DNA of 48,822 nucleotides from Tunavirus T1, in the sequence record MN153797.1. One strand, given 5' to 3'. Positions 2,099 through 41,985 of this stretch are shown piece by piece. The number at the start of each line of letters is the position of its first letter. The stretch's first letter is position 1. Both the position numbers and the translations under genes were made by a program. The notes below the pieces were generated by a model. The model saw nothing but the letters and a program-made list of their open reading frames with translations, did no database searches and was not told the origin of the DNA.

Positions 2099-2272
2099 AT
2101 GATGCGGATTCTGATTTGCATGATGGCGGCGGTCGCCATGGCTATCCTGGTAGTGTCCGGCTGCGGCGAGGCCAGGGATAGCTGTCATGAAACCGGGAGC
2201 CAGGTTACTACTTTCGTGATGGTTGGCAACGTATTGCTACCAATAACATCAAATGAAATCACTTGCGAATAG
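2099..2272 (+). CDS. small putative lipoprotein (signal peptide MMRILICMMAAVAMAILVVSGC)
   Basis: Internal ATG of ORF 2027..2272 preceded by gggag; hydrophobic N-terminus ending in lipobox-like VSGC. Confidence 0.4.
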   Translation: MMRILICMMAAVAMAILVVSGCGEARDSCHETGSQVTTFVMVGNVLLPITSNEITCE

Positions 2273-2312
2273 CACTTTTTGTTAAAACTCAACTCCGGGG
2301 TTGCGATATAGT
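2270..2312 (+). promoter_or_regulatory. Box-dependent promoter: tagcactttttgtta + TATAGT (2307-2312)
   Basis: Centre to -10 = 30 bp; -10 in hairpin ggggtt..aacccc; box TAG = upstream stop codon. Confidence 0.55.
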
Positions 2313-2343
2313 AACCCCATCGACAACGAACGAGGACGCAAAC

Positions 2344-2832
2344 ATGAAAATTAAATTACTTAGCAATGGCGGTTACAAGGGATTCACCCGCGACCTGGAA
2401 GCTGACCCTATCGTGGTTGACGCGGTTAAGTGCGACTCAAGTACTGGAGGCTACCGCGTTAAGGTTGATGACCTTGTAAAAGCTGGCGTGTACGATCTTG
2501 ATTATGGCCTGTCGGTTAGCCCGGTATTTGGCCCAGCTGACTTCAACGAGAAAGACGGAACGATGTTCTTTTTTGATTGGGAAGTGAAGGCAAACATCAA
2601 GCCGCGCAAGGTTCGTCTTCTCAGCAATGGCGGCTACCCGATGCGACCAGGTTATGAGAATCGCACGTTCCCGGTTATCGTTGACTTCATTGGGACAACT
2701 GACAACTTGGTATACGTTAGCCATGAGCAACTTAAGGCAGTTGGATTCGTTGGCGGTATGAATAAAGAAGCGCTTTGCTTCTTCCATCGATGTCCAGAGC
2801 CGATCGGTATTGAGTGCGAGTTAGTATACTAA
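2344..2832 (+). CDS. hypothetical protein with internal duplicated motif K(I/V)(K/R)LLSNGGY
   Basis: ATG 2344 in frame with ORF 2263..2832, RBS gagga; repeat seen in translation. Confidence 0.5.
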   Translation: MKIKLLSNGGYKGFTRDLEADPIVVDAVKCDSSTGGYRVKVDDLVKAGVYDLDYGLSVSPVFGPADFNEKDGTMFFFDWEVKANIKPRKVRLLSNGGYPMRPGYENRTFPVIVDFIGTTDNLVYVSHEQLKAVGFVGGMNKEALCFFHRCPEPIGIECELVY

Positions 2833-2873
2833 GCACGAATTGTTAAAAGGGGATTTGGCCTGACTGGTATAAT
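2831..2873 (+). promoter_or_regulatory. Box-dependent promoter: aagcacgaattgtta + TGg-TATAAT (2868-2873)
   Basis: Centre to -10 = 30 bp; extended -10; hairpin ggggatt..aatcccc. Confidence 0.55.
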
Positions 2874-2903
2874 CCCCACATCAACCACTAATAGGAAAGC
2901 ATC

Positions 2904-3389
2904 ATGTTAAAATTAAAAGATATTCAGTTCCCTGTAGTATTTAACACTATTAGCTGCGGTAAAATAACCTGCCACAGCAAAGATCGCGCAACAGATTCAT
3001 CATTCAATGAGTGCCACCCGTCTATTGTTGGTAATCTTATTGAGCTTCATAACAATCACAATCCTGATAACATCCCATCTCTTCCATATTATGTTGAGGG
3101 AGTCGGGCCTGGTTGGAAGGTTGGTCGCTCCATCTTCCATGCAGCAAAGCCAGAAATCAAGCCAGCGCTACAATGCACTCAGATCGAGAACATGCCATTG
3201 AGCGCGACACTAAAAGGTGTCCAACTTGATAGCGAATCCTGGATCGAGATTACCGCCACGCCTAAAACTATTGAGGTACATGATGATGTGGTGATTCTCC
3301 TGTTGCATTACGGCAGCTTTAAGCACAAGACGGTATCAGGTGAAATCAGCATTAAGCGCGGAACTCTTGTCCGCTACGAGGTGAAATAA
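2904..3389 (+). CDS. hypothetical protein
   Basis: ORF track; RBS aggaaag. Confidence 0.5.
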   Translation: MLKLKDIQFPVVFNTISCGKITCHSKDRATDSSFNECHPSIVGNLIELHNNHNPDNIPSLPYYVEGVGPGWKVGRSIFHAAKPEIKPALQCTQIENMPLSATLKGVQLDSESWIEITATPKTIEVHDDVVILLLHYGSFKHKTVSGEISIKRGTLVRYEVK

Positions 3390-3538
3390 TGACTGCATGG
3401 GTCTTGATTATCTTGATGAGCAAAGGTCCGGATCACGTATACATGGAAAGTCAACAATCATGCAACAAGGCACGGGAAGTTATCGCAGAGAACAAGCCGT
3501 TCGGATATGAAGTAAAAACTATGTGCGTTAAACGATAG
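3389..3538 (+). CDS. small hypothetical protein (49 aa)
   Basis: ATG overlaps upstream stop (taATGa); stop TAG is first triplet of the next box; below ORF-track size cutoff. Confidence 0.3.
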   Translation: MTAWVLIILMSKGPDHVYMESQQSCNKAREVIAENKPFGYEVKTMCVKR

Positions 3539-3578
3539 CACGAATTGCTAAACCTTCCGCAAGGCCATTTGATATAGT
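3536..3578 (+). promoter_or_regulatory. Box-dependent promoter: tagcacgaattgcta + TGa-TATAGT (3573-3578)
   Basis: Centre to -10 = 30 bp; hairpin aaggcca..tggcctt. Confidence 0.55.
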
Positions 3579-3618
3579 GGCCTTATTGAAGCACGACAAC
3601 CAACTGGAGGTAAAATTT

Positions 3619-3993
3619 ATGAAATTCGAATGTATCAGCGATAACACCAAAAAATTTACTGTTGGCAAAATTTACGATGTTCCGACTGAGCACGCAGAGC
3701 AAACCGTAGCTCTGACCGACGACACGGGCCGCAACCGAATTGCAACCGTAACTCACAACGGTGAAGGTCTTCGCTGGAATAGCGGCGGCACTAAGTTCGC
3801 AACGTTCGACAAGAAGCGCAAGCGCACCTTCCGCGTCAACGGCAATGTTGCAGCTAACAAGATCCATAACGTCAAGCCGTCGGAAGTTGACCGCAAGCCA
3901 GCGCTGAAGTTTAAAGAGAAGGTGGATTTATTCAATCTTGCCGCCTCGCTTGTTCTCCTGGTCGCTGCTATTTCGCTGCTTTCCATCATGTAA
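3619..3993 (+). CDS. hypothetical protein with C-terminal transmembrane anchor
   Basis: Internal ATG of ORF 3577..3993 preceded by GGAGG; hydrophobic C-terminus LAASLVLLVAAISLLSIM. Confidence 0.5.
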   Translation: MKFECISDNTKKFTVGKIYDVPTEHAEQTVALTDDTGRNRIATVTHNGEGLRWNSGGTKFATFDKKRKRTFRVNGNVAANKIHNVKPSEVDRKPALKFKEKVDLFNLAASLVLLVAAISLLSIM

Positions 3994-25043: not shown

Positions 25044-28000
25044 ATGATTCAAAAAGTGATAAGCGGATCTAAAGGTGGGTCACAGAAGCCTCATAACCCA
25101 GTTGAGATGGAGGACAATCTAATCTCAATCAACAAAATCAAGATCCTGTTAGCTGTATCTGATGGTGAAATTGACGAAACATTCAGCCTGAAGCAGTTGA
25201 TGTTTAACTCAGTCCCGGTGCAAAACGAGGATGGCTCATTTAACTTCGAGGGAGTAAAGGCAGAGTTCAGACCTGGGACGCAGACTCAGGAATATATCAA
25301 GGGAATGGAAGATAGCTCTAGTGAGGTAACTGTAAATCGTGAGGTTACTACCGATAACCCATACACAATCTCAGTAACCAACAAAACGCTGTCGGCAATC
25401 CGTATCAAAATGTTCATGCCTCGCGGCGTACGAATTGAAAGTAACGGTGATAAAAATGGCGTAAGAGTTGAGTATGAGGTGCAACAAGCTGTTGATGGCG
25501 GCTCGTTTGAGACGGTGCTCACCGATGTAATCGAAGGCAAAACAATGTCAGGTTACGATCGGAGCAGACGTGTAAACCTACCTAACTTCAACAATCAGGT
25601 GATATTCAGAGTGGTTCGGAAAACTCCAGACTCTAACGACTCGAACGTTGTTGACGCGATTCAGGTAAAGAGCTATGCCGAGGTGATTGATGCCAAATTC
25701 CGTTATCCGCTGACTGGTCTTCTTTTTGTCGAGTTTGATTCGAAGATGTTCCCAAACCAGTTACCTACGATCTCAATTCGTAAGCGCTGGAAGATTGTAA
25801 ACGTTCCGTCAAACTATGATCCAGAATCACGAACTTATAACGGAAATTGGGATGGAACTTTTAAGAAGGCATGGACGAATAATCCGGCCTGGGTGCTTTA
25901 TGACCTGATGATTAATCAGCGTTATGGCTTGGATCAGAAAGAGCTTGGTATCGCTGTAGATAAATGGGCGCTCTACGAGGCTGCGCAATATTGCGATCAG
26001 ATGGTTCCTGATGGGAAGGGCGGGACGGAACCTCGATACCTTTGCGACGTGATAATCCAGTCTCAGACTGACGCTTACAAGGTTATCCGAGATATTTGCT
26101 CAATCTTTCGTGGTATGAGCTTTTGGAATGGTGAGAGCATTTCGGTAATCATCGACAGGCCGCGTGAACCTGCGTACATCTTCACTAACGACAACGTTGT
26201 TAATGGTGACTTCTCCTACACGTTCGCAAGCGAAAAGAGCATGTACACGACGTGTAATGTGATGTTTGATGATGAACAAAACATGTATCAGCAGGACGTT
26301 GAGCCAGTATTCGATCGTGAGGCTACTCTACGGTTTGGGAACAACGTTACGAGCATTACAGCGATCGGTTGCACACGTCGAAGCGAGGCCAACCGACGCG
26401 GGAGATGGATTCTGAAAACTAACCTCCGCAGCACTACGGTAAACTTCGCTACCGGGCTTGAGGGCATGATCCCGACAATCGGAGATGTTGTGGCAATAGC
26501 TGATAACTTCTGGTCAAGTAACTTGACAATGAACCTGTCAGGGCGTTTGCTCGAAGTGTCTGGAAGTCAGATTTTCTTGCCGTTCCGGGTGGATGCACGC
26601 GCTGGTGACTTTATTATCGTAAATAAGCCAGATGGCAAGCCTGTGAAGCGCACAATCTCAAGTGTTAGTGCGGATGGTAAGACTATAGAGGTTAACATTG
26701 GCTTTGGCTTTCCTGTGAAGCCTAACACGGTATTCGCTATCGACCGCACCGACATTGCGTTACAGCAGTACGTCGTGACAAAAATCGATAAGGGCGATGA
26801 TGATGAGGAATTTACCTACAAAATAACGGCGGTGGAGTACGATCCTAACAAGTATGATGAGATTGATTACGGAGTTAACATCGACGACCGACCGACGAGC
26901 ATCGTTGAACCAGATCAGATCCCTAGACCGAAAAATGTGCAAGTATCCTCAGAGTCGAGAATCGTCCAGGGGATGAGCGTAGAAACGATGATTGTTAGCT
27001 GGGATAAAGTTCCGTACGCTGTTTTCTATGACGTCCAGTGGCGAAAGGATAACGGCAACTGGCAAAATGTACCGCAGACAGCAAACAAAGAGGTATACGT
27101 TGAAGGTATTTACGCTGGCAACTATCAGGTTCGCGTTCGCTCAGTCGCTGGTTCGGGCACGACTTCAGGCTGGTCAAATATCGTCGCGGCAACGTTGACG
27201 GGTAAACAGGGTGAACCGGGCCGACCGATTAACCTCACAGCTACGGATGATGTTGTTTTTGGTATCCGTACAAAATGGGGGTTCTCTGATGGTTCTGGAG
27301 ATACAGCCTATACAGAGTTGCAACAGTCACCGGATGGAACAGTGGATAACGCAAGTTTGCTTTCTTTGATTCCGTATCCGCAGCATGAGTATTATCACTC
27401 ACCAATGCCTGGAGGGAATATTGTTTGGTATCGGGTAAGGATGGTTGACAGGATCGGTAACGTGTCTCAGTGGACTGATTTTGTCAGAGGTATGGCATCA
27501 ACAAACGTTGACGATATCATTGGGGAGATTTCTGTTGATATCGAAAACTCACCTGGTTACGAGTGGCTTGTTGATAACGCAACAGACAACGCGGCGCAGA
27601 ACTCAGCTAACGCAGAGGCAGCAATAGAAAACGCGCTCGCCAATGACAAAGACGCGATCTACATGAAGAAGGAGAACGGAAAACGAAAAGCTGAGTACAC
27701 GAAATCACTGAAACTTATTGCTGATGAGACGCAGGCACGAGTGACGGCGATCGAGCAATTGAAGGCAAGTTTTGGCGATCAGATTAGCGCTAGCAACAGC
27801 GAGCTGCGTGAGGTTATCGCAACCGAGACTGAAGCACTATCGCGTGAGATTGACCAGCTTAAGGCTCAGATTGGTGACGATATTCAGGCAAGTCTGACTG
27901 ATATTCGGGAGGTTATCGCAACCGAGACTGAAGCACTATCGCGTGAGATTGACCAGCTTAAGGCTCAGATTGGTGACGATATTCAGGCAAGTCTGACTGA

Positions 28001-28562
28001 TATTCGGGAGGCTATCGCGAACGAGACTGAGGCTAGAACGCAAGCTGACTTAACACTTAGCGCGCGGCTTGGAAATAACGAGGCGGCACTTGCTCAAAAA
28101 CTAGACTCGTGGAGTAACGCGGATTCTACTGGTGCAATGTACGGTGTCAAGTTGGGTCTGAAATACAACGGCCAGGAATACAGTGCAGGCATGGCTATGT
28201 CTCTAGTTGGTTCCGGAGCTGCGGTTAAGGCGCAGATTTTGTTTGAGGCGTCACGATTTGCCATCATGACTGGAATGAATGGTCAGACTCAGTACCCCTT
28301 CGTTGTTGAGAATGGTCAGGTTATTTTAAGTAGCGCGATTATCAAGAACGGATTCATCACCAACGCAATGATTGGAAACTTCATCCAGTCGAATAACTAT
28401 GTATTTAACCAGTCCGGATGGAGGCTTGACAAGGGTGGAACATTCGAAAATTGCGGAAGTGACGGTGAGGGTGCAATGAAGCAAACTAATACCACAATAT
28501 CTGTTAGGGATGCGAGTGGTCGCCTGAGGGTTCAGATTGGCAGGTTGACTGGCTCATGGTAA
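25044..28562 (+). CDS. central tail fiber / host specificity protein (lambda J-like)
   Basis: 1172-aa ORF after M-L-K-I block; contains in-frame 99-bp tandem repeat. Confidence 0.8.
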   Translation: MIQKVISGSKGGSQKPHNPVEMEDNLISINKIKILLAVSDGEIDETFSLKQLMFNSVPVQNEDGSFNFEGVKAEFRPGTQTQEYIKGMEDSSSEVTVNREVTTDNPYTISVTNKTLSAIRIKMFMPRGVRIESNGDKNGVRVEYEVQQAVDGGSFETVLTDVIEGKTMSGYDRSRRVNLPNFNNQVIFRVVRKTPDSNDSNVVDAIQVKSYAEVIDAKFRYPLTGLLFVEFDSKMFPNQLPTISIRKRWKIVNVPSNYDPESRTYNGNWDGTFKKAWTNNPAWVLYDLMINQRYGLDQKELGIAVDKWALYEAAQYCDQMVPDGKGGTEPRYLCDVIIQSQTDAYKVIRDICSIFRGMSFWNGESISVIIDRPREPAYIFTNDNVVNGDFSYTFASEKSMYTTCNVMFDDEQNMYQQDVEPVFDREATLRFGNNVTSITAIGCTRRSEANRRGRWILKTNLRSTTVNFATGLEGMIPTIGDVVAIADNFWSSNLTMNLSGRLLEVSGSQIFLPFRVDARAGDFIIVNKPDGKPVKRTISSVSADGKTIEVNIGFGFPVKPNTVFAIDRTDIALQQYVVTKIDKGDDDEEFTYKITAVEYDPNKYDEIDYGVNIDDRPTSIVEPDQIPRPKNVQVSSESRIVQGMSVETMIVSWDKVPYAVFYDVQWRKDNGNWQNVPQTANKEVYVEGIYAGNYQVRVRSVAGSGTTSGWSNIVAATLTGKQGEPGRPINLTATDDVVFGIRTKWGFSDGSGDTAYTELQQSPDGTVDNASLLSLIPYPQHEYYHSPMPGGNIVWYRVRMVDRIGNVSQWTDFVRGMASTNVDDIIGEISVDIENSPGYEWLVDNATDNAAQNSANAEAAIENALANDKDAIYMKKENGKRKAEYTKSLKLIADETQARVTAIEQLKASFGDQISASNSELREVIATETEALSREIDQLKAQIGDDIQASLTDIREVIATETEALSREIDQLKAQIGDDIQASLTDIREAIANETEARTQADLTLSARLGNNEAALAQKLDSWSNADSTGAMYGVKLGLKYNGQEYSAGMAMSLVGSGAAVKAQILFEASRFAIMTGMNGQTQYPFVVENGQVILSSAIIKNGFITNAMIGNFIQSNNYVFNQSGWRLDKGGTFENCGSDGEGAMKQTNTTISVRDASGRLRVQIGRLTGSW
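27811..28008 (+). repeat. Perfect 99-bp tandem duplication (2 copies plus a diverged partial third) inside the J-like gene
   Basis: Unit aggttatcgcaaccgagactgaagcactatcgcgtgagattgaccagcttaaggctcagattggtgacgatattcaggcaagtctgactgatattcggg repeats at 27811 and 27910; encodes the same 33-aa segment twice. Confidence 0.85.
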
Positions 28563-28568
28563 TATCAA

Positions 28569-28596
28569 GGGCATCGAGAGATGCCCTTTTCTTTTG
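28569..28596 (+). terminator. Rho-independent terminator
   Basis: gggcatc-gaga-gatgccc then TTTTCTTTT. Confidence 0.55.
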
Positions 28597-28607
28597 GAGG
28601 ATTTATT

Positions 28608-28913
28608 ATGGCGTACGGTATATCAACTTGGGACGCAAATGGCGTTTATAATAACTATGGAATTAAGCCTATTACGGTTGTTGGTTGGAACTTTTTGTCA
28701 GCAGGCCAGAATTCAGCATCGTTCAGCTATCAAGTGCCTCCTGGTATGCATGTGAACTACGTTATAAGCCTTGACGATGGCGCCATTAGTGGGCCTAGCA
28801 GGAAAATTATTGCTAGCGGTAATACGATAACAGTAACGCCAACAAACTCACCTGGGCCAAACGTGTACCCATCATCAAACTGTTACTTAATAGCATATCT
28901 GGAGAATGATTAA
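28608..28913 (+). CDS. tail-associated hypothetical protein (paralogous N-terminus with next ORF)
   Basis: ATG 28608 with RBS ggagga; N-terminus M(A/S)YG..(D/V)ANG shared with 28913..29602. Confidence 0.45.
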   Translation: MAYGISTWDANGVYNNYGIKPITVVGWNFLSAGQNSASFSYQVPPGMHVNYVISLDDGAISGPSRKIIASGNTITVTPTNSPGPNVYPSSNCYLIAYLEND

Positions 28914-29602
28914 TGTCATACGGTGCTTTTATAGATGTAAACGGAAACCCATTCATAACCCCGTTATCCACGCCATTCGCTTTATATGCGAGAGGGGAAA
29001 TTCAATCAGTAAATGTTAGTGGTTCACAGGTTGCGGAGAGATACGTTCGGATACCTACAGGTGTTCCGGTTATAGCTTTTTGCAAAACAACAAACACGCA
29101 GCAGGGGACCGCGCTTTCAGCCTTTACTTTCAGAAGCGGACCCAATGTTGGAACTGTTTATATAAGGGGGACAAATCCAGCAAAACAATCATACACGCTA
29201 ACATACTACATATTTGCCATATTTGAGCAGTCACTACCGAGATGGGGTATGGCAATATGGGATGCGACAGGAAAGCTAGTGCTGACAAATGAGACAAAAG
29301 TCCTTAGTGATTTGGTTACAATCGGCACTCCTGGATACGCTGGCGGTGGATTAAACATAGACACAACACTCAGCGGAAGCTACGCGGTTGTTCCAACTAT
29401 ACTTGGCAACTATCAAATTGTTATTGGAAGGTTGCCAACTGGGCAACCAATAATAGGAAACTCAACAGCAGGCAGTTCATGCAGGTACAACGGGAGCACA
29501 ACGAGAATAAATGCAGCAGCAACCACTGCGGCAGGTCAGATAATGAACACAGCGAATAATGGAAATATTATAACAGCAATCAAAACGGCAGCATACGACT
29601 AA
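28913..29602 (+). CDS. tail-associated hypothetical protein (possible fiber or receptor-binding accessory)
   Basis: ORF track; Gly/Thr/Asn-rich; paralogous N-terminus. Confidence 0.45.
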   Translation: MSYGAFIDVNGNPFITPLSTPFALYARGEIQSVNVSGSQVAERYVRIPTGVPVIAFCKTTNTQQGTALSAFTFRSGPNVGTVYIRGTNPAKQSYTLTYYIFAIFEQSLPRWGMAIWDATGKLVLTNETKVLSDLVTIGTPGYAGGGLNIDTTLSGSYAVVPTILGNYQIVIGRLPTGQPIIGNSTAGSSCRYNGSTTRINAAATTAAGQIMNTANNGNIITAIKTAAYD

Positions 29603-29625
29603 GCCCCTTGCGGGGCTTTTATTTT
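29603..29625. terminator. Bidirectional terminator between convergent genes
   Basis: gcccc-ttgc-ggggc with T-runs on both strands. Confidence 0.6.
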
Positions 29626-29851
29626 ATATCGAGCAATCGTGAGATTTGAAGTTTTTCTCTGATACATAGTTGAAGGAGAATGGGTATCCAGCACGCAATA
29701 CCATCTCCTTTCCGCGCATCTTAGATCCAAAAACGTAAACCGAGTACTCCGCGCCGCCTGATTCATAAATTGCCGTGCAAGTGCGCTCAGGCATCGATGA
29801 GCAACCAGTCAGGATGAATGCCGCAGCGATAACGGTGATTAACTTTTTCAT
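29624..29851 (-). CDS. cor: Cor-like small lipoprotein (candidate superinfection exclusion / receptor blocking)
   Basis: 75 aa; signal peptide MKKLITVIAAAFILTGC with lipobox LTGC; convergent with tail genes. Confidence 0.5.
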   Translation of the reverse strand: MKKLITVIAAAFILTGCSSMPERTCTAIYESGGAEYSVYVFGSKMRGKEMVLRAGYPFSFNYVSEKNFKSHDCSI

Positions 29852-30378
29852 TTGTATGTCCTCGTCGTTAGTGTGATTGCATTGTATGTCGCATTTACTT
29901 TTATTGCAATAGAGCGATTACAATTTTTTTCGTGTAACAGGCGTATATTTTTGTAACCGGAATGGGTGTTACAAAATCGCCTCCATCCGACCGCAGGGAG
30001 ATATGATAAAAACTCTATATAATATATATAGATAGATAATATTTAATTTTAGCTTTATATATATAATTATTGTTGTGTAACAGTTGTATATCGTGTAACA
30101 GGTGATTTGATTGATTCGTCAAATTTCTATCATGTATGTTCAAAATTTAATCAATCTGGATTCTATTTGTAGGTATCTCTGTATTTCTAATAAAAAGCGG
30201 TTACAAGTGTTACGCAATAGACAGCGCATAAAAATCTACTTAAGCCATTGATTCTGTTGATGCTGGTTGTAACTTGAGCAATATAGACACGCAATTACAC
30301 ACTGATTACATGTATTCGATTGACTAAACGCTGTTAATGGCTATAATGGATTCATCGTAAACGAAGGAGATAAACGCA
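29852..30378. promoter_or_regulatory. AT-rich divergent control region with repeated GTGTAACA-type motifs
   Basis: cgtgtaacag at about 29931, 30078, 30098; ggtgttaca at about 29955; gtgttacg at about 30210; poly-AT tracts 30010-30060. Confidence 0.45.
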
Positions 30379-31443
30379 ATGTTCCATGTATTCACATCAA
30401 GCCAGCTTTCTAACGACGAGTATCATAGAAACGAAGGTTGGGCGTCAGAGTATGTAAGCGGATCGAGTCTTGCAGAAATTTATCAGACCTGCCCTGCTAA
30501 CTGGAGATTCAAGAAGAACGAGACAACGAAAACTCTGGAGTTCGGTACTCAGTCGCACACCAACTTTGAGAGTCGAGATCTGTTTACTGCAACGTATGCT
30601 AGATGCCCTGCTCCGTCAGAGTTTAAGGATCTGATTACTTCGCAGGCGGCGCTGGCAGCAAAATTAAAATCATTCGGCCTGAAAGGTACATCCGGTAAGC
30701 AGTACCCGGACCTCATCAAAATGATGGTTGATTGTGGTGAAGAACTCAACGTTCAATACCTGATTGAACTGATCGCAGAAGCTGAGGCCCGTGCTGAAGG
30801 AAAACAACTTGTTGACGCGGACAAATACGACGCTTGCATGAAGATGAGAGTCATCCTTGAGCAGAATCCCGATCATGAAGCGTGCATCAACAGTGAAACG
30901 GCGCAGCGTGAGATTTCAATCTTCGGTGAGATATCCGGCGTAAAAGTTAAGGTTCGACTTGACCATCTGGACTACAAAGAGAATGTTCCAGGTCGTGTCC
31001 TGACTGGTTATGATGAGAATGGCGATCCGGTATTTGAAGACGTAATTTTCCCGGAAGCACTGATTATCACAGATTTCAAAACTACGATGAGCGCCAACCC
31101 GTTAGAGTTCCCGAGACTGGCATACAATCACGGCTATTACCTGAAGATGGCATTGCAGCATGACCTGCTACGACGCGCAATCCAGGCTGGAGCTTTTGAA
31201 GGTAACTTCCCGGAAGACATTCCGATCGTGGTTCGATTGCTTGCGCAGGAGAAAAAAGAGCCTTATATCGCACTGGCTTACCGTATGACTATGGAGCAAA
31301 TCAGGATAGGTCGTAACCAGTACATTAGCGTAGTCCACACTTACAAGGCTTGCTCTGAAATGGATGTTTGGCCTGGGTACGCTGGCGACGCAAGCGAGAT
31401 CGAACTTGAAACGCCATCATGGGTGCGTTACCAAAATAAGTAA
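30379..31443 (+). CDS. recombination exonuclease (PD-(D/E)XK, RecB/RecE-like)
   Basis: Motif IITDFKTT resembles RecB-family (I/V)xDYKT; sits upstream of Erf and SSB. Confidence 0.5.
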   Translation: MFHVFTSSQLSNDEYHRNEGWASEYVSGSSLAEIYQTCPANWRFKKNETTKTLEFGTQSHTNFESRDLFTATYARCPAPSEFKDLITSQAALAAKLKSFGLKGTSGKQYPDLIKMMVDCGEELNVQYLIELIAEAEARAEGKQLVDADKYDACMKMRVILEQNPDHEACINSETAQREISIFGEISGVKVKVRLDHLDYKENVPGRVLTGYDENGDPVFEDVIFPEALIITDFKTTMSANPLEFPRLAYNHGYYLKMALQHDLLRRAIQAGAFEGNFPEDIPIVVRLLAQEKKEPYIALAYRMTMEQIRIGRNQYISVVHTYKACSEMDVWPGYAGDASEIELETPSWVRYQNK

Positions 31444-31517
31444 ACGGCATAAATAGCTAAACAAATAATTAATGAGGTGTTATAATGCACCTCATACACC
31501 AATCAGGAGAAGTTAAG

Positions 31518-32165
31518 ATGCAATTATCACCAGAAACAAACGAAATCCTTCCCGCACTGTTCAATGCTCGCAATAAATTTGCTAAAGCAAAGAAGGACGC
31601 AAAAAACAATCACCTGAAAAATTCATACGCAACTCTTGATGCAATGATGGCTGCGGTTAGTCCGGCGCTAACCGACAACGATATTATGATCCTGCAATCA
31701 ATGCTGGACACCAGCACTGAAACAACCTTCCATCTTGAAACGATGCTGATTCACAAATCCGGGCAGTGGGCCAAATTCTTCATGATGATGCCGATTGCAA
31801 AGCGCGATCCGCAAGGCGTAGGTTCTGCAATGACGTATGCTCGACGTTACTCATTAGCCGCAGCGCTGGGGATTAGCCAGAGTGATGACGATGCTCAGCT
31901 TGCAGTGAAATCCGTCAAGGACTGGAAAAAAGAACTTGATGCGTGTGAAGACATCGAGTCACTGAAAGATGTATGGGCCAACGCTTACCGCCAGACTGAC
32001 ACGGCGAGCAAGTCAATCATTCAGGATCACTACAACGCATTGAAGGCTAAATTTGAGATCGGTAAAGCTCGCGGCATTCGCCCGGCGCAACCGGAACAGA
32101 AAAAACAGGTTGAAGCAACAAGCGCGAAGCCTGTACAATCCCAATCAATCACCAACTTCGAATAA
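31518..32165 (+). CDS. erf: single-strand annealing protein (Erf-like)
   Basis: ATG 31518 with RBS caggagaag; motif GSAMTYARRYSL; sits between exonuclease and SSB. Confidence 0.5.
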   Translation: MQLSPETNEILPALFNARNKFAKAKKDAKNNHLKNSYATLDAMMAAVSPALTDNDIMILQSMLDTSTETTFHLETMLIHKSGQWAKFFMMMPIAKRDPQGVGSAMTYARRYSLAAALGISQSDDDAQLAVKSVKDWKKELDACEDIESLKDVWANAYRQTDTASKSIIQDHYNALKAKFEIGKARGIRPAQPEQKKQVEATSAKPVQSQSITNFE

Positions 32166-32211: not shown

Positions 32212-32634
32212 ATGCATATTATCACTGGCGAGATCCGCAAAGAACCAAAGATTCTTGAACGTAACGGCGGCAATACTTATATTATCGAACTGGCAGAAAG
32301 CTATAAGCCTCGTGATGGCGATCGCGAATACACCAACTACACGTTCTTTTTTAGCGACGGTGGGAAGCCAGGCCTTGCTGACTGGTATCGTGAAGCGTTC
32401 CAAGTTGGTCGAGTTATCTCAGTATCGTGCGAGACGTTGAAGATCTCATCACGCGAACACAACGGAATGATTTACAATTCATTGCAGGCGGCTGACTTCC
32501 CTAAACTAGTATTTAGTCAACGAGGTCAAAGCAACCAGCAACAACGAGCGCCTCAGCAACAACAGCGTTCTCAGCAGCAATCACAACCAAAACCAAATCA
32601 ACAATCAACATTTGACGACGATATTCCATTCTAA
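32212..32634 (+). CDS. ssb: single-stranded DNA-binding protein
   Basis: OB-fold-sized N-terminus, Gln-rich linker, C-terminus DDDIPF (canonical SSB tail). Confidence 0.75.
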   Translation: MHIITGEIRKEPKILERNGGNTYIIELAESYKPRDGDREYTNYTFFFSDGGKPGLADWYREAFQVGRVISVSCETLKISSREHNGMIYNSLQAADFPKLVFSQRGQSNQQQRAPQQQQRSQQQSQPKPNQQSTFDDDIPF

Positions 32635-32640
32635 AGAGAA

Positions 32641-32662
32641 GCCCCGCATTGCGGGGCTTTTT
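32641..32662. terminator. Bidirectional terminator between convergent ssb and tail fiber
   Basis: gccccgc-att-gcggggc then TTTTT. Confidence 0.6.
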
Positions 32663-32695
32663 ATTACTTCATCTCAATTGCCTTCGGAAATGAGT

Positions 32696-36417: not shown

Positions 36418-36430
36418 CTTGATTCCCCTA

Positions 36431-36473
36431 TAGCACTTTTTGCTAAAAACGTTTACTTTATGCCGTGTATTAT
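36431..36473 (+). promoter_or_regulatory. Box-dependent promoter: tagcactttttgcta + TATTAT (36468-36473)
   Basis: Centre to -10 = 30 bp; -10 in hairpin aacgtttac..gtaaacgtt. Confidence 0.55.
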
Positions 36474-41941: not shown

Positions 41942-41942
41942 A

Positions 41943-41985
41943 TAGCACCTTTTGTTAAAACAGTACCCGCGAAAGCGGGTATTAT
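41943..41985 (+). promoter_or_regulatory. Box-dependent promoter: tagcaccttttgtta + TATTAT (41980-41985)
   Basis: Centre to -10 = 30 bp; hairpin acccgc-gaaa-gcgggt. Confidence 0.5.

Follow-up and report, generated by a model that had tools for sequence, protein, structure and literature searches.

In the 48822-nt stretch of DNA analysed here (i.e., the window), an ATG-initiated ORF of 75 amino acids on the minus strand converges on the tail/receptor-binding genes, which end at 29602 on the plus strand. The initial annotation had described a 75-residue minus-strand ORF with a lipoprotein signal that is transcribed convergently with the tail genes, and the ORF list, the lipobox LTGC and the opposed orientation of the plus-strand genes bear out that description. 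The interval that was given for it, 29603-29851, is right at the 29851 end but not at the 29603 end, as the gene spans 29624-29851 and the 21 extra nucleotides are terminator, non-coding DNA. The features of the gene are given below.

29624..29851, minus strand: coding sequence of cor (T1 orf30), 75 codons followed by the TAA stop at 29624-29626 (ORF list, identity with T1, PHROG 1119, NF047972)
29804..29851, minus strand: signal peptide, residues 1-16, MKKLITVIAAAFILTG (sequence, LPAM_1, comparison with reference T1)
29801..29803, minus strand: codon of Cys17, the lipid-attachment cysteine of the lipobox LTG/C (C17 invariant; right-hand homology breakpoint of the cassette described below)
29627..29800, minus strand: mature Cor domain, residues 18-75, modelled as a small all-beta barrel, with conserved C25, C73 and RAGYPF
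29859..29863, minus strand: RBS GAGGA, 7 nt 5' of the cor ATG (sequence; AY216660 has an annotated RBS at the corresponding position)

Identity and family membership of the ORF

In a megablast search against GenBank phages, positions 28500-30400 of the window were 99.6% identical to phage T1 with 100% query coverage (AY216660, NC_005833 and MK213796). The ORF at 29624-29851 (-) is orf30/ST30 of the T1 records (AAP49969.1, YP_003915.1), in which it is named "lysogenic conversion protein Cor" or "Cor superinfection exclusion protein." This DNA identity and the T1 annotation identify the window as a T1 isolate and the ORF as T1 cor. Between the encoded protein and its T1 reference there is a single difference, V instead of I at position 7 in the signal peptide, and the mature Cor is identical with that of reference T1. 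We are highly confident that the ORF is cor of coliphage T1 with its exclusion function. The cor gene of T1 is already known: it has been annotated since publication of the T1 genome, tested by overexpression and modelled on FhuA. For T1, our analysis thus closes the ORF as a correct re-discovery of a textbook gene, with nothing new.

As a T1 variant, the window has 48822 nt, compared to 48836 nt in the reference, with SNPs at 29833 and 30387 and at nine more positions within 27000-31900. At codon 3 of recE, the window has CAT (His), where T1 and its relatives have CAG or CAA (Gln).

The protein matched PHROG 1119 (i.e., "Cor superinfection exclusion protein") over residues 1-74 with an E-value of 5e-30 and the NCBIfam equivalog NF047972 (i.e., "phage exclusion lipoprotein Cor") over residues 1-73 with 56.1 bits, the curated cut-off being 31. 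Cor homologues were found by tblastn in 244 phage records; among them, those of phi80, N15, ES18 and the HK-type and mEp lambdoid phages were 33-37% identical over 97% of the length. Among 20 homologues with identities of 61-96%, 26 columns were invariant, including C17, C25, C73 and A54-G55-Y56-P57, while R53 and F58 were nearly so. The family scores, the 244 records and the invariant columns place the gene far beyond a chance ORF. The RAGYPF motif is common to the Cor proteins of T1, phi80 and N15, in which the C-terminal cysteine is also retained, and C17 and C25 are invariant among these three proteins and Llp of phage T5. Equivalents of the two mature-domain cysteines, C25 and C73, are present in phi80 Cor, N15 Cor and Llp, as judged from conservation only.

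Cor homologues with 75 and 56% identity to the T1 protein are also encoded in MG065688.1 and MG065687.1, two records of 44-48 kb titled "Campylobacter phage A110b" and "A136," respectively. The presence of Cor in Campylobacter-named records is odd and may reflect coliphage contamination or mislabelling.

The N-terminus of Cor, MKKLITVIAAAFILTGC, contains two Lys residues, a hydrophobic core of 10 residues and an L-T-G-C lipobox whose cysteine is followed by Ser-Ser, which places Ser at +2. Lipoprotein signal prediction had been proposed as a check on the initial annotation, and the Pfam model LPAM_1 scored 20.2 bits on this N-terminus, just above its cut-off of 20. From these sequence features, Cor is predicted to be exported by the Sec pathway, lipidated at C17 and cleaved by signal peptidase II. 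Sorting of E. coli lipoproteins follows residue +2 (i.e., the "+2 rule"), and the Ser at this position suggests that Cor would be sorted to the outer membrane. Conservation of C25 and C73 and the precedent of Llp suggest that the two cysteines may form a disulfide.

Weak PHROG matches to other small lipoprotein families, including the Rz-like spanin PHROG 6073 (E 0.024), and a score of 16.4 bits for the Pfam family PF24052 would agree with an unrelated small lipoprotein, such as an outer-membrane spanin component or a moron of different function, that merely adjoins the tail genes. These PHROG matches, however, cover little past the signal peptide, and that to the spanin is limited to residues 1-24, whereas the full-length matches go to the Cor models, above their curated cut-offs. 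PF24052 represents an alternative, AV106-type lipoprotein family with the same signal peptide. Moreover, T1 has a lysis cassette with holin, endolysin and its own spanin elsewhere, at ~42.9-44.0 kb, while cor is situated between tail and recombination genes. We therefore consider an unrelated lipoprotein extremely improbable, and the gene is treated as cor in what follows. An Rz1-like spanin reading of cor was likewise rejected, as the match ended near the signal peptide and the gene was outside the lysis cassette. PF24052 ("Phage_lipoprotein"; 16.4 bits, cut-off 27) was also tried as an Llp-type family and rejected, as it is in fact the AV106-type lipoprotein family; the weak score of Cor arises because the signal peptide is shared with the AV106-type lipoprotein. 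All matches of a phmmer search of Cor against PDB sequences were to designed armadillo-repeat proteins and were discarded as spurious, owing to low complexity.

Transcription of cor and the cor-recE spacer

Two transcription signals flank cor.

29601..29628, plus strand: intrinsic terminator of the tail/receptor-binding operon, hairpin AAGCCCC-TTGC-GGGGCTT (29601-29618) followed by a T-tract (terminator scan; annotated on the plus strand in both T1 records)
29881..29909, minus strand: candidate sigma-70 promoter of cor, TTGCAA-17 nt-TACAAT, with 9/12 matches (from similarity to the consensus)

The hairpin is located between both stop codons and, on the minus strand, 5 nt beyond that of cor. 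On the plus strand, its tail is the T-tract TTTTATTTTAT, and a terminator was called. The minus-strand hairpin folds equally well, but its tail, AGUCGUAUG, is without a U-tract, and the scan called no minus-strand terminator at 29601-29618. Thus, of the bidirectional terminator proposed initially, the shared hairpin and its canonical plus-strand form stand, while the minus-strand half does not have the expected tail. The T1 annotators also marked the plus strand only at the cor hairpin, yet both strands at 32632-32664. Minus-strand read-through antisense to orf31 is possible.

The proposal that cor is driven from 29852-30378 is consistent with the candidate promoter at 29909-29881, which falls in that interval; this is a moderate 9/12 consensus match and not a mapped promoter, and our literature search did not find a mapped cor transcript. 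Both promoter hexamers are unchanged across seven Tunavirus genomes, one of which is AV106, but the spacer is 96% identical among these genomes, so that the invariance of the hexamers says little. On the opposite (plus) strand, the spacer has a near-consensus promoter of recE, TTGACT-16-TATAAT, at 30320-30347. The recE promoter region was active in GFP reporter assays and repressed by Pir and cAMP-CRP (PMC6737242).

If read in this way, cor would be a small transcription unit of its own, transcribed out of the AT-rich cor-recE spacer from the strand opposite to that of the late tail genes, and a virulent phage could make Cor before the late genes switch on. The inverted orientation of cor would uncouple it from late tail transcription, as would suit a virulent phage, for which the block has to be in place before lysis. 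Both the promoter and the early timing of cor expression are predictions from the sequence.

The spacer at 29852-30378 has 527 nt with a G+C content of 33%, compared to 45% for the genome. Seven of the 24 TGTAAC/GTTACA hexamers in the genome are found inside it, where 0.26 would be expected, and this is the sole such cluster in the genome. The spacer also contains three TCGTGTAACAGG-like 12-mers at 29930, 30073 and 30091, the inverted pair TTTTGTAAC-N10-GTTACAAAA at 29949-29976, whose arms are conserved and whose inner N10 is variable, and an AT-only palindromic core at 30019-30067 that is flanked by the 12-mers and the inverted pair. All sites of the array are conserved in seven Tunavirus genomes, and RobRod40, a distant phage of the Braunvirinae, has a similar TGTAAC cluster with an AT-rich tract in its own cor-recE interval (positions 3471-3736 of locus L004). 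The array resembles an iteron or operator array and is a candidate replication origin or set of regulator sites. When TGTAAC was considered as the site of Pir, one copy was found in the pir promoter region and none upstream of dam or hol. The updated AY216660 record lists CPTT1_049, a hypothetical protein of 46 amino acids, for an ORF within the spacer at 30111-30251 (+); as this ORF runs across the TGTAAC site of the array at 30200, it is possibly not a genuine gene.

The T1/TLS 21-nt direct-repeat element ATAGCACnnnTTGnTAAAA occurs in 21 copies with ≤2 mismatches in the window, including those at 102-120, 1450-1468, 36430-36448 and 41942-41960, where 0.14 would be expected. When it was considered as a phage-specific promoter element upstream of cor, 0 of the 21 copies were found in 29852-30378.

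Tail neighbours and the exchangeable cassette

Upstream of the shared hairpin on the plus strand, the J-like tail tip gene at 25044-28562 (+) is followed by orf32 and orf31, and the gene order J-gp22-gp23-cor is common to T1 and the FhuA-dependent phages phi80 and N15.

28608..29602, plus strand: orf32 and orf31 (N15 gp22/gp23-like), FhuA-type "bona fide receptor-binding protein" genes moving together with cor (PHROG 557, 425)
28399..29801: exchangeable host-recognition cassette, comprising the last ~55 J-like codons, orf32, orf31 and mature Cor (blastn against AV106)

Neither orf32 nor orf31 has a hydrophobic segment (maximal 19-residue Kyte-Doolittle means of 0.52 and 1.12, respectively), and neither matched a family in Pfam or NCBIfam. 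Their annotated names look unsupported, and the receptor-binding reading of the BASEL papers fits better. In the BASEL collection, the loci downstream of gpJ, including the "cognate superinfection exclusion proteins," were matched to receptor type (PMC8594841), and the three-gene cor cassette was found only in FhuA-dependent BASEL phages (PMC13164509).

Comparison of the window with AV106 by blastn showed that homology stops at 28398, within the last ~55 J codons, and restarts at 29802. In ~33 Tunavirus genomes (AV106, SH6, Shfl1, pSf-2, Sfin-1 and others), the cor-recE spacer and the sequence for the cor signal peptide are 91-95% identical to those of the window, and homology breaks at 29801-29804, which is the Cys17 codon. 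The AV106 protein starts with MKKLITIIAAAFILTGC; the mature domain that comes next is unrelated (Pfam PF24052, 86 bits), and a minus-strand gene for a protein of 318 amino acids (PHROG 1265) is found in AV106 in place of orf31/orf32 (positions 2136-3500 of locus L003). Given the breaks at 28398 and 29802, the unit of exchange therefore consists of the J tip, the receptor-binding genes and the mature lipoprotein. Judged by these comparisons, the swap of the cassette gives strong comparative support for a link between the function of the lipoprotein and the receptor specificity of the neighbouring genes, and the AV106-type lipoprotein presumably serves another receptor.

The position of the right-hand breakpoint exactly at the Cys17 codon in ~33 genomes suggests selection for constant export signals and an exchanged receptor-specific domain. 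The 5' end of cor (i.e., promoter region, RBS and signal peptide to Cys17) might thus be a fixed "expression and export socket," with homologous recombination there and in J swapping the cassettes, a proposal for and against which we see the case as evenly balanced. If true, it would provide a precise and portable junction for re-targeting the receptor-binding protein and the exclusion protein together. The modularity of the cor/receptor loci is already published (BASEL papers); descriptions of the exact lipobox junction and of the inverted orientation of cor compared to temperate phages were not found in our literature search.

Exclusion, fold and comparison with known systems

The initial annotation had proposed testing exclusion by expression of the ORF in a sensitive host, and such a test had in fact been published: Laganenka et al. 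(2019) cloned T1 orf30 (cor) in pTrc99A, and its overexpression made the susceptible E. coli ECOR-4 T1-resistant (PMC6737242, Fig. S3). The T1 receptor is FhuA (PMC8594841), and a passage of a recent preprint, in which Uc-Mass 2004 is cited, states that lambdoid prophage Cor proteins exclude FhuA-dependent phages and functionally inactivate FhuA (bioRxiv 10.64898/2026.03.26.714494). For T1 Cor itself, our literature search found neither direct binding, adsorption or ferrichrome-uptake data nor colicin M or albomycin sensitivity data; the published T1 test is a plating/resistance assay.

The AlphaFold2 model of Cor was computed with a 20-sequence alignment, and the homologue search for that alignment gave close relatives only (≥59% identity), so that the alignment is shallow. 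Its mean pLDDT was 75.7, with 82-91 over residues 21-70 and low values in the signal peptide. The mature protein was modelled as five beta strands, and the model agrees with the fold of Llp, a small beta barrel with a disulfide that in Cor is predicted. Its best PDB match was T5 Llp in complex with FhuA (~22% sequence identity), while Foldseek of the model against PDB gave nothing significant and did not link it to Llp. In hhalign, the Cor profile matched Llp (a query sequence 100% identical to T5 llp) with a probability of 94% and an E-value of 1.3e-7 over 50 columns that include the score-inflating signal peptide, and C25 of Cor was aligned to C26 of Llp. After a Cor homologue, the best matches in BFVD were small proteins of T5-like phages, including the "receptor-blocking protein" of phiR2-01. 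At E ≤ 1e-3, tblastn with Cor found no T5 record among the phage matches, and no Pfam family covers Cor or Llp. An identity of ~20% between Llp and Cor, disulfide included, was reported previously (PMC9586334), and the predicted structures of T1, phi80, mEp167 and HK022 Cor resemble Llp and were grouped with it (bioRxiv 10.64898/2026.03.26.714494). In an AF3 model, Cor of KanT1, a close T1 relative, was placed on the periplasmic side of FhuA, overlapping the Llp site, with an ipTM of 0.84 (PMC13164509).

The proposal that the gene encodes a Cor-like receptor-blocking lipoprotein agrees with these results, in which the Cor family models are passed, T1 records carry the Cor annotation, the J-gp22-gp23-cor linkage is kept and Llp is the best PDB match. 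It had been based on position and signal peptide only; both hold, but the evidence is now much stronger, as it comprises family models, linkage, a structure match and a published test.

On the basis of the fold match and the published models, we consider it likely that Cor acts by an Llp-like mechanism, i.e., periplasmic binding and allosteric inactivation of FhuA. The 75-residue precursor would be exported by Sec, lipidated at Cys17, cut by signal peptidase II and sorted to the outer membrane, where the beta-barrel domain of ~58 residues, probably held by a C25-C73 disulfide, would bind the periplasmic face of FhuA, the terminal receptor of T1. FhuA would then be locked in a state that is unusable by T1-type receptor-binding proteins, as with T5 Llp, and the infected cell would be closed to further FhuA-dependent phages, while progeny would not be lost on FhuA of cell debris.

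Cor might instead exclude FhuA-dependent phages without an Llp-like periplasmic lock, by requiring other outer-membrane proteins, by disturbing TonB coupling or by stopping the entry of DNA once reversible binding has taken place, and not adsorption. How Cor excludes phages at the molecular level has been stated as not elucidated (bioRxiv 10.64898/2026.03.26.714494), and the fold match with Llp is modest, at only ~22% identity, and was missed by Foldseek. However, Llp bound to FhuA is the top PDB structural match of Cor, the profile match to Llp takes in the first disulfide cysteine, the Cor of a close T1 relative is docked on the periplasmic side of FhuA over the Llp site in the AF3 model (PMC13164509), and both Cor and Llp have the outer-membrane sorting signal (Ser at +2). 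Together, these points lead us to regard the absence of an Llp-like lock as unlikely.

With the same molecular activity, the main selected benefit of Cor in virulent T1 may be not the exclusion of superinfecting phages but that progeny, once released, are kept from adsorbing irreversibly to FhuA on the debris of lysed cells. As most hosts are infected by T1 in a virulent manner, the main role of cor cannot be lysogenic conversion; "Cor of T1 or Llp of T5" were named as stopping adsorption of progeny to debris in the second BASEL paper (PMC11990801), and a progeny-protection role has been described for receptor-blocking lipoproteins (PMC5238451, PMC13164509). Progeny protection is, however, compatible with superinfection exclusion, as both follow from the same receptor block, and a comparison of yields between cor+ and cor- T1 was not found in our literature search. 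We hold progeny protection as the main benefit only tentatively, at somewhat less than an even chance.

Receptor-blocking lipoproteins of this kind explain how a virulent phage shields the infected cell and its progeny from the phage's own receptor. They also matter for the design of phage cocktails, in which a Cor-producing infection would exclude every FhuA-dependent phage, and for host-range engineering.

Compared to known systems, cor of the window is the same as that of reference T1 in position, strand, length (75 amino acids), mature protein, terminator, RBS and neighbour genes, and differs from it in the conservative substitution at signal-peptide residue 7, with 11 SNPs across the surrounding 4.9 kb. 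The Cor proteins of phi80, N15, HK022 and mEp167 belong to the same family as T1 Cor (NF047972, PHROG 1119), and those of phi80 and N15 resemble it in identity (35-37% over the full length), lipobox, two cysteines, RAGYPF and J-gp22-gp23-cor linkage. In phi80 (positions 2501-2734 of locus L010) and N15 (positions 2501-2737 of locus L011), however, cor is co-oriented with the tail genes, follows them after a gap of ~110 nt and is expressed by the prophage, whereas T1 and other Tunavirus genomes carry it in the inverse orientation, pointing towards the tail operon, with its reading direction out of the cor-recE spacer. The AV106/SH6/Shfl1-type lipoprotein (PF24052, PHROG 4281) shares with T1 cor the genomic slot, the promoter region, the RBS and a signal peptide that is identical at the DNA level up to the lipobox cysteine, but it has an unrelated mature domain and is paired with the minus-strand gene for 318 amino acids. 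T5 Llp (PDB 8A60 chain B, 7QJF) and T1 Cor both carry Ser at +2 as an outer-membrane sorting signal; their identity is only ~22% and their fold match modest, and their partner receptor-binding proteins, pb5 in T5 and orf31/orf32 in T1, are unrelated.
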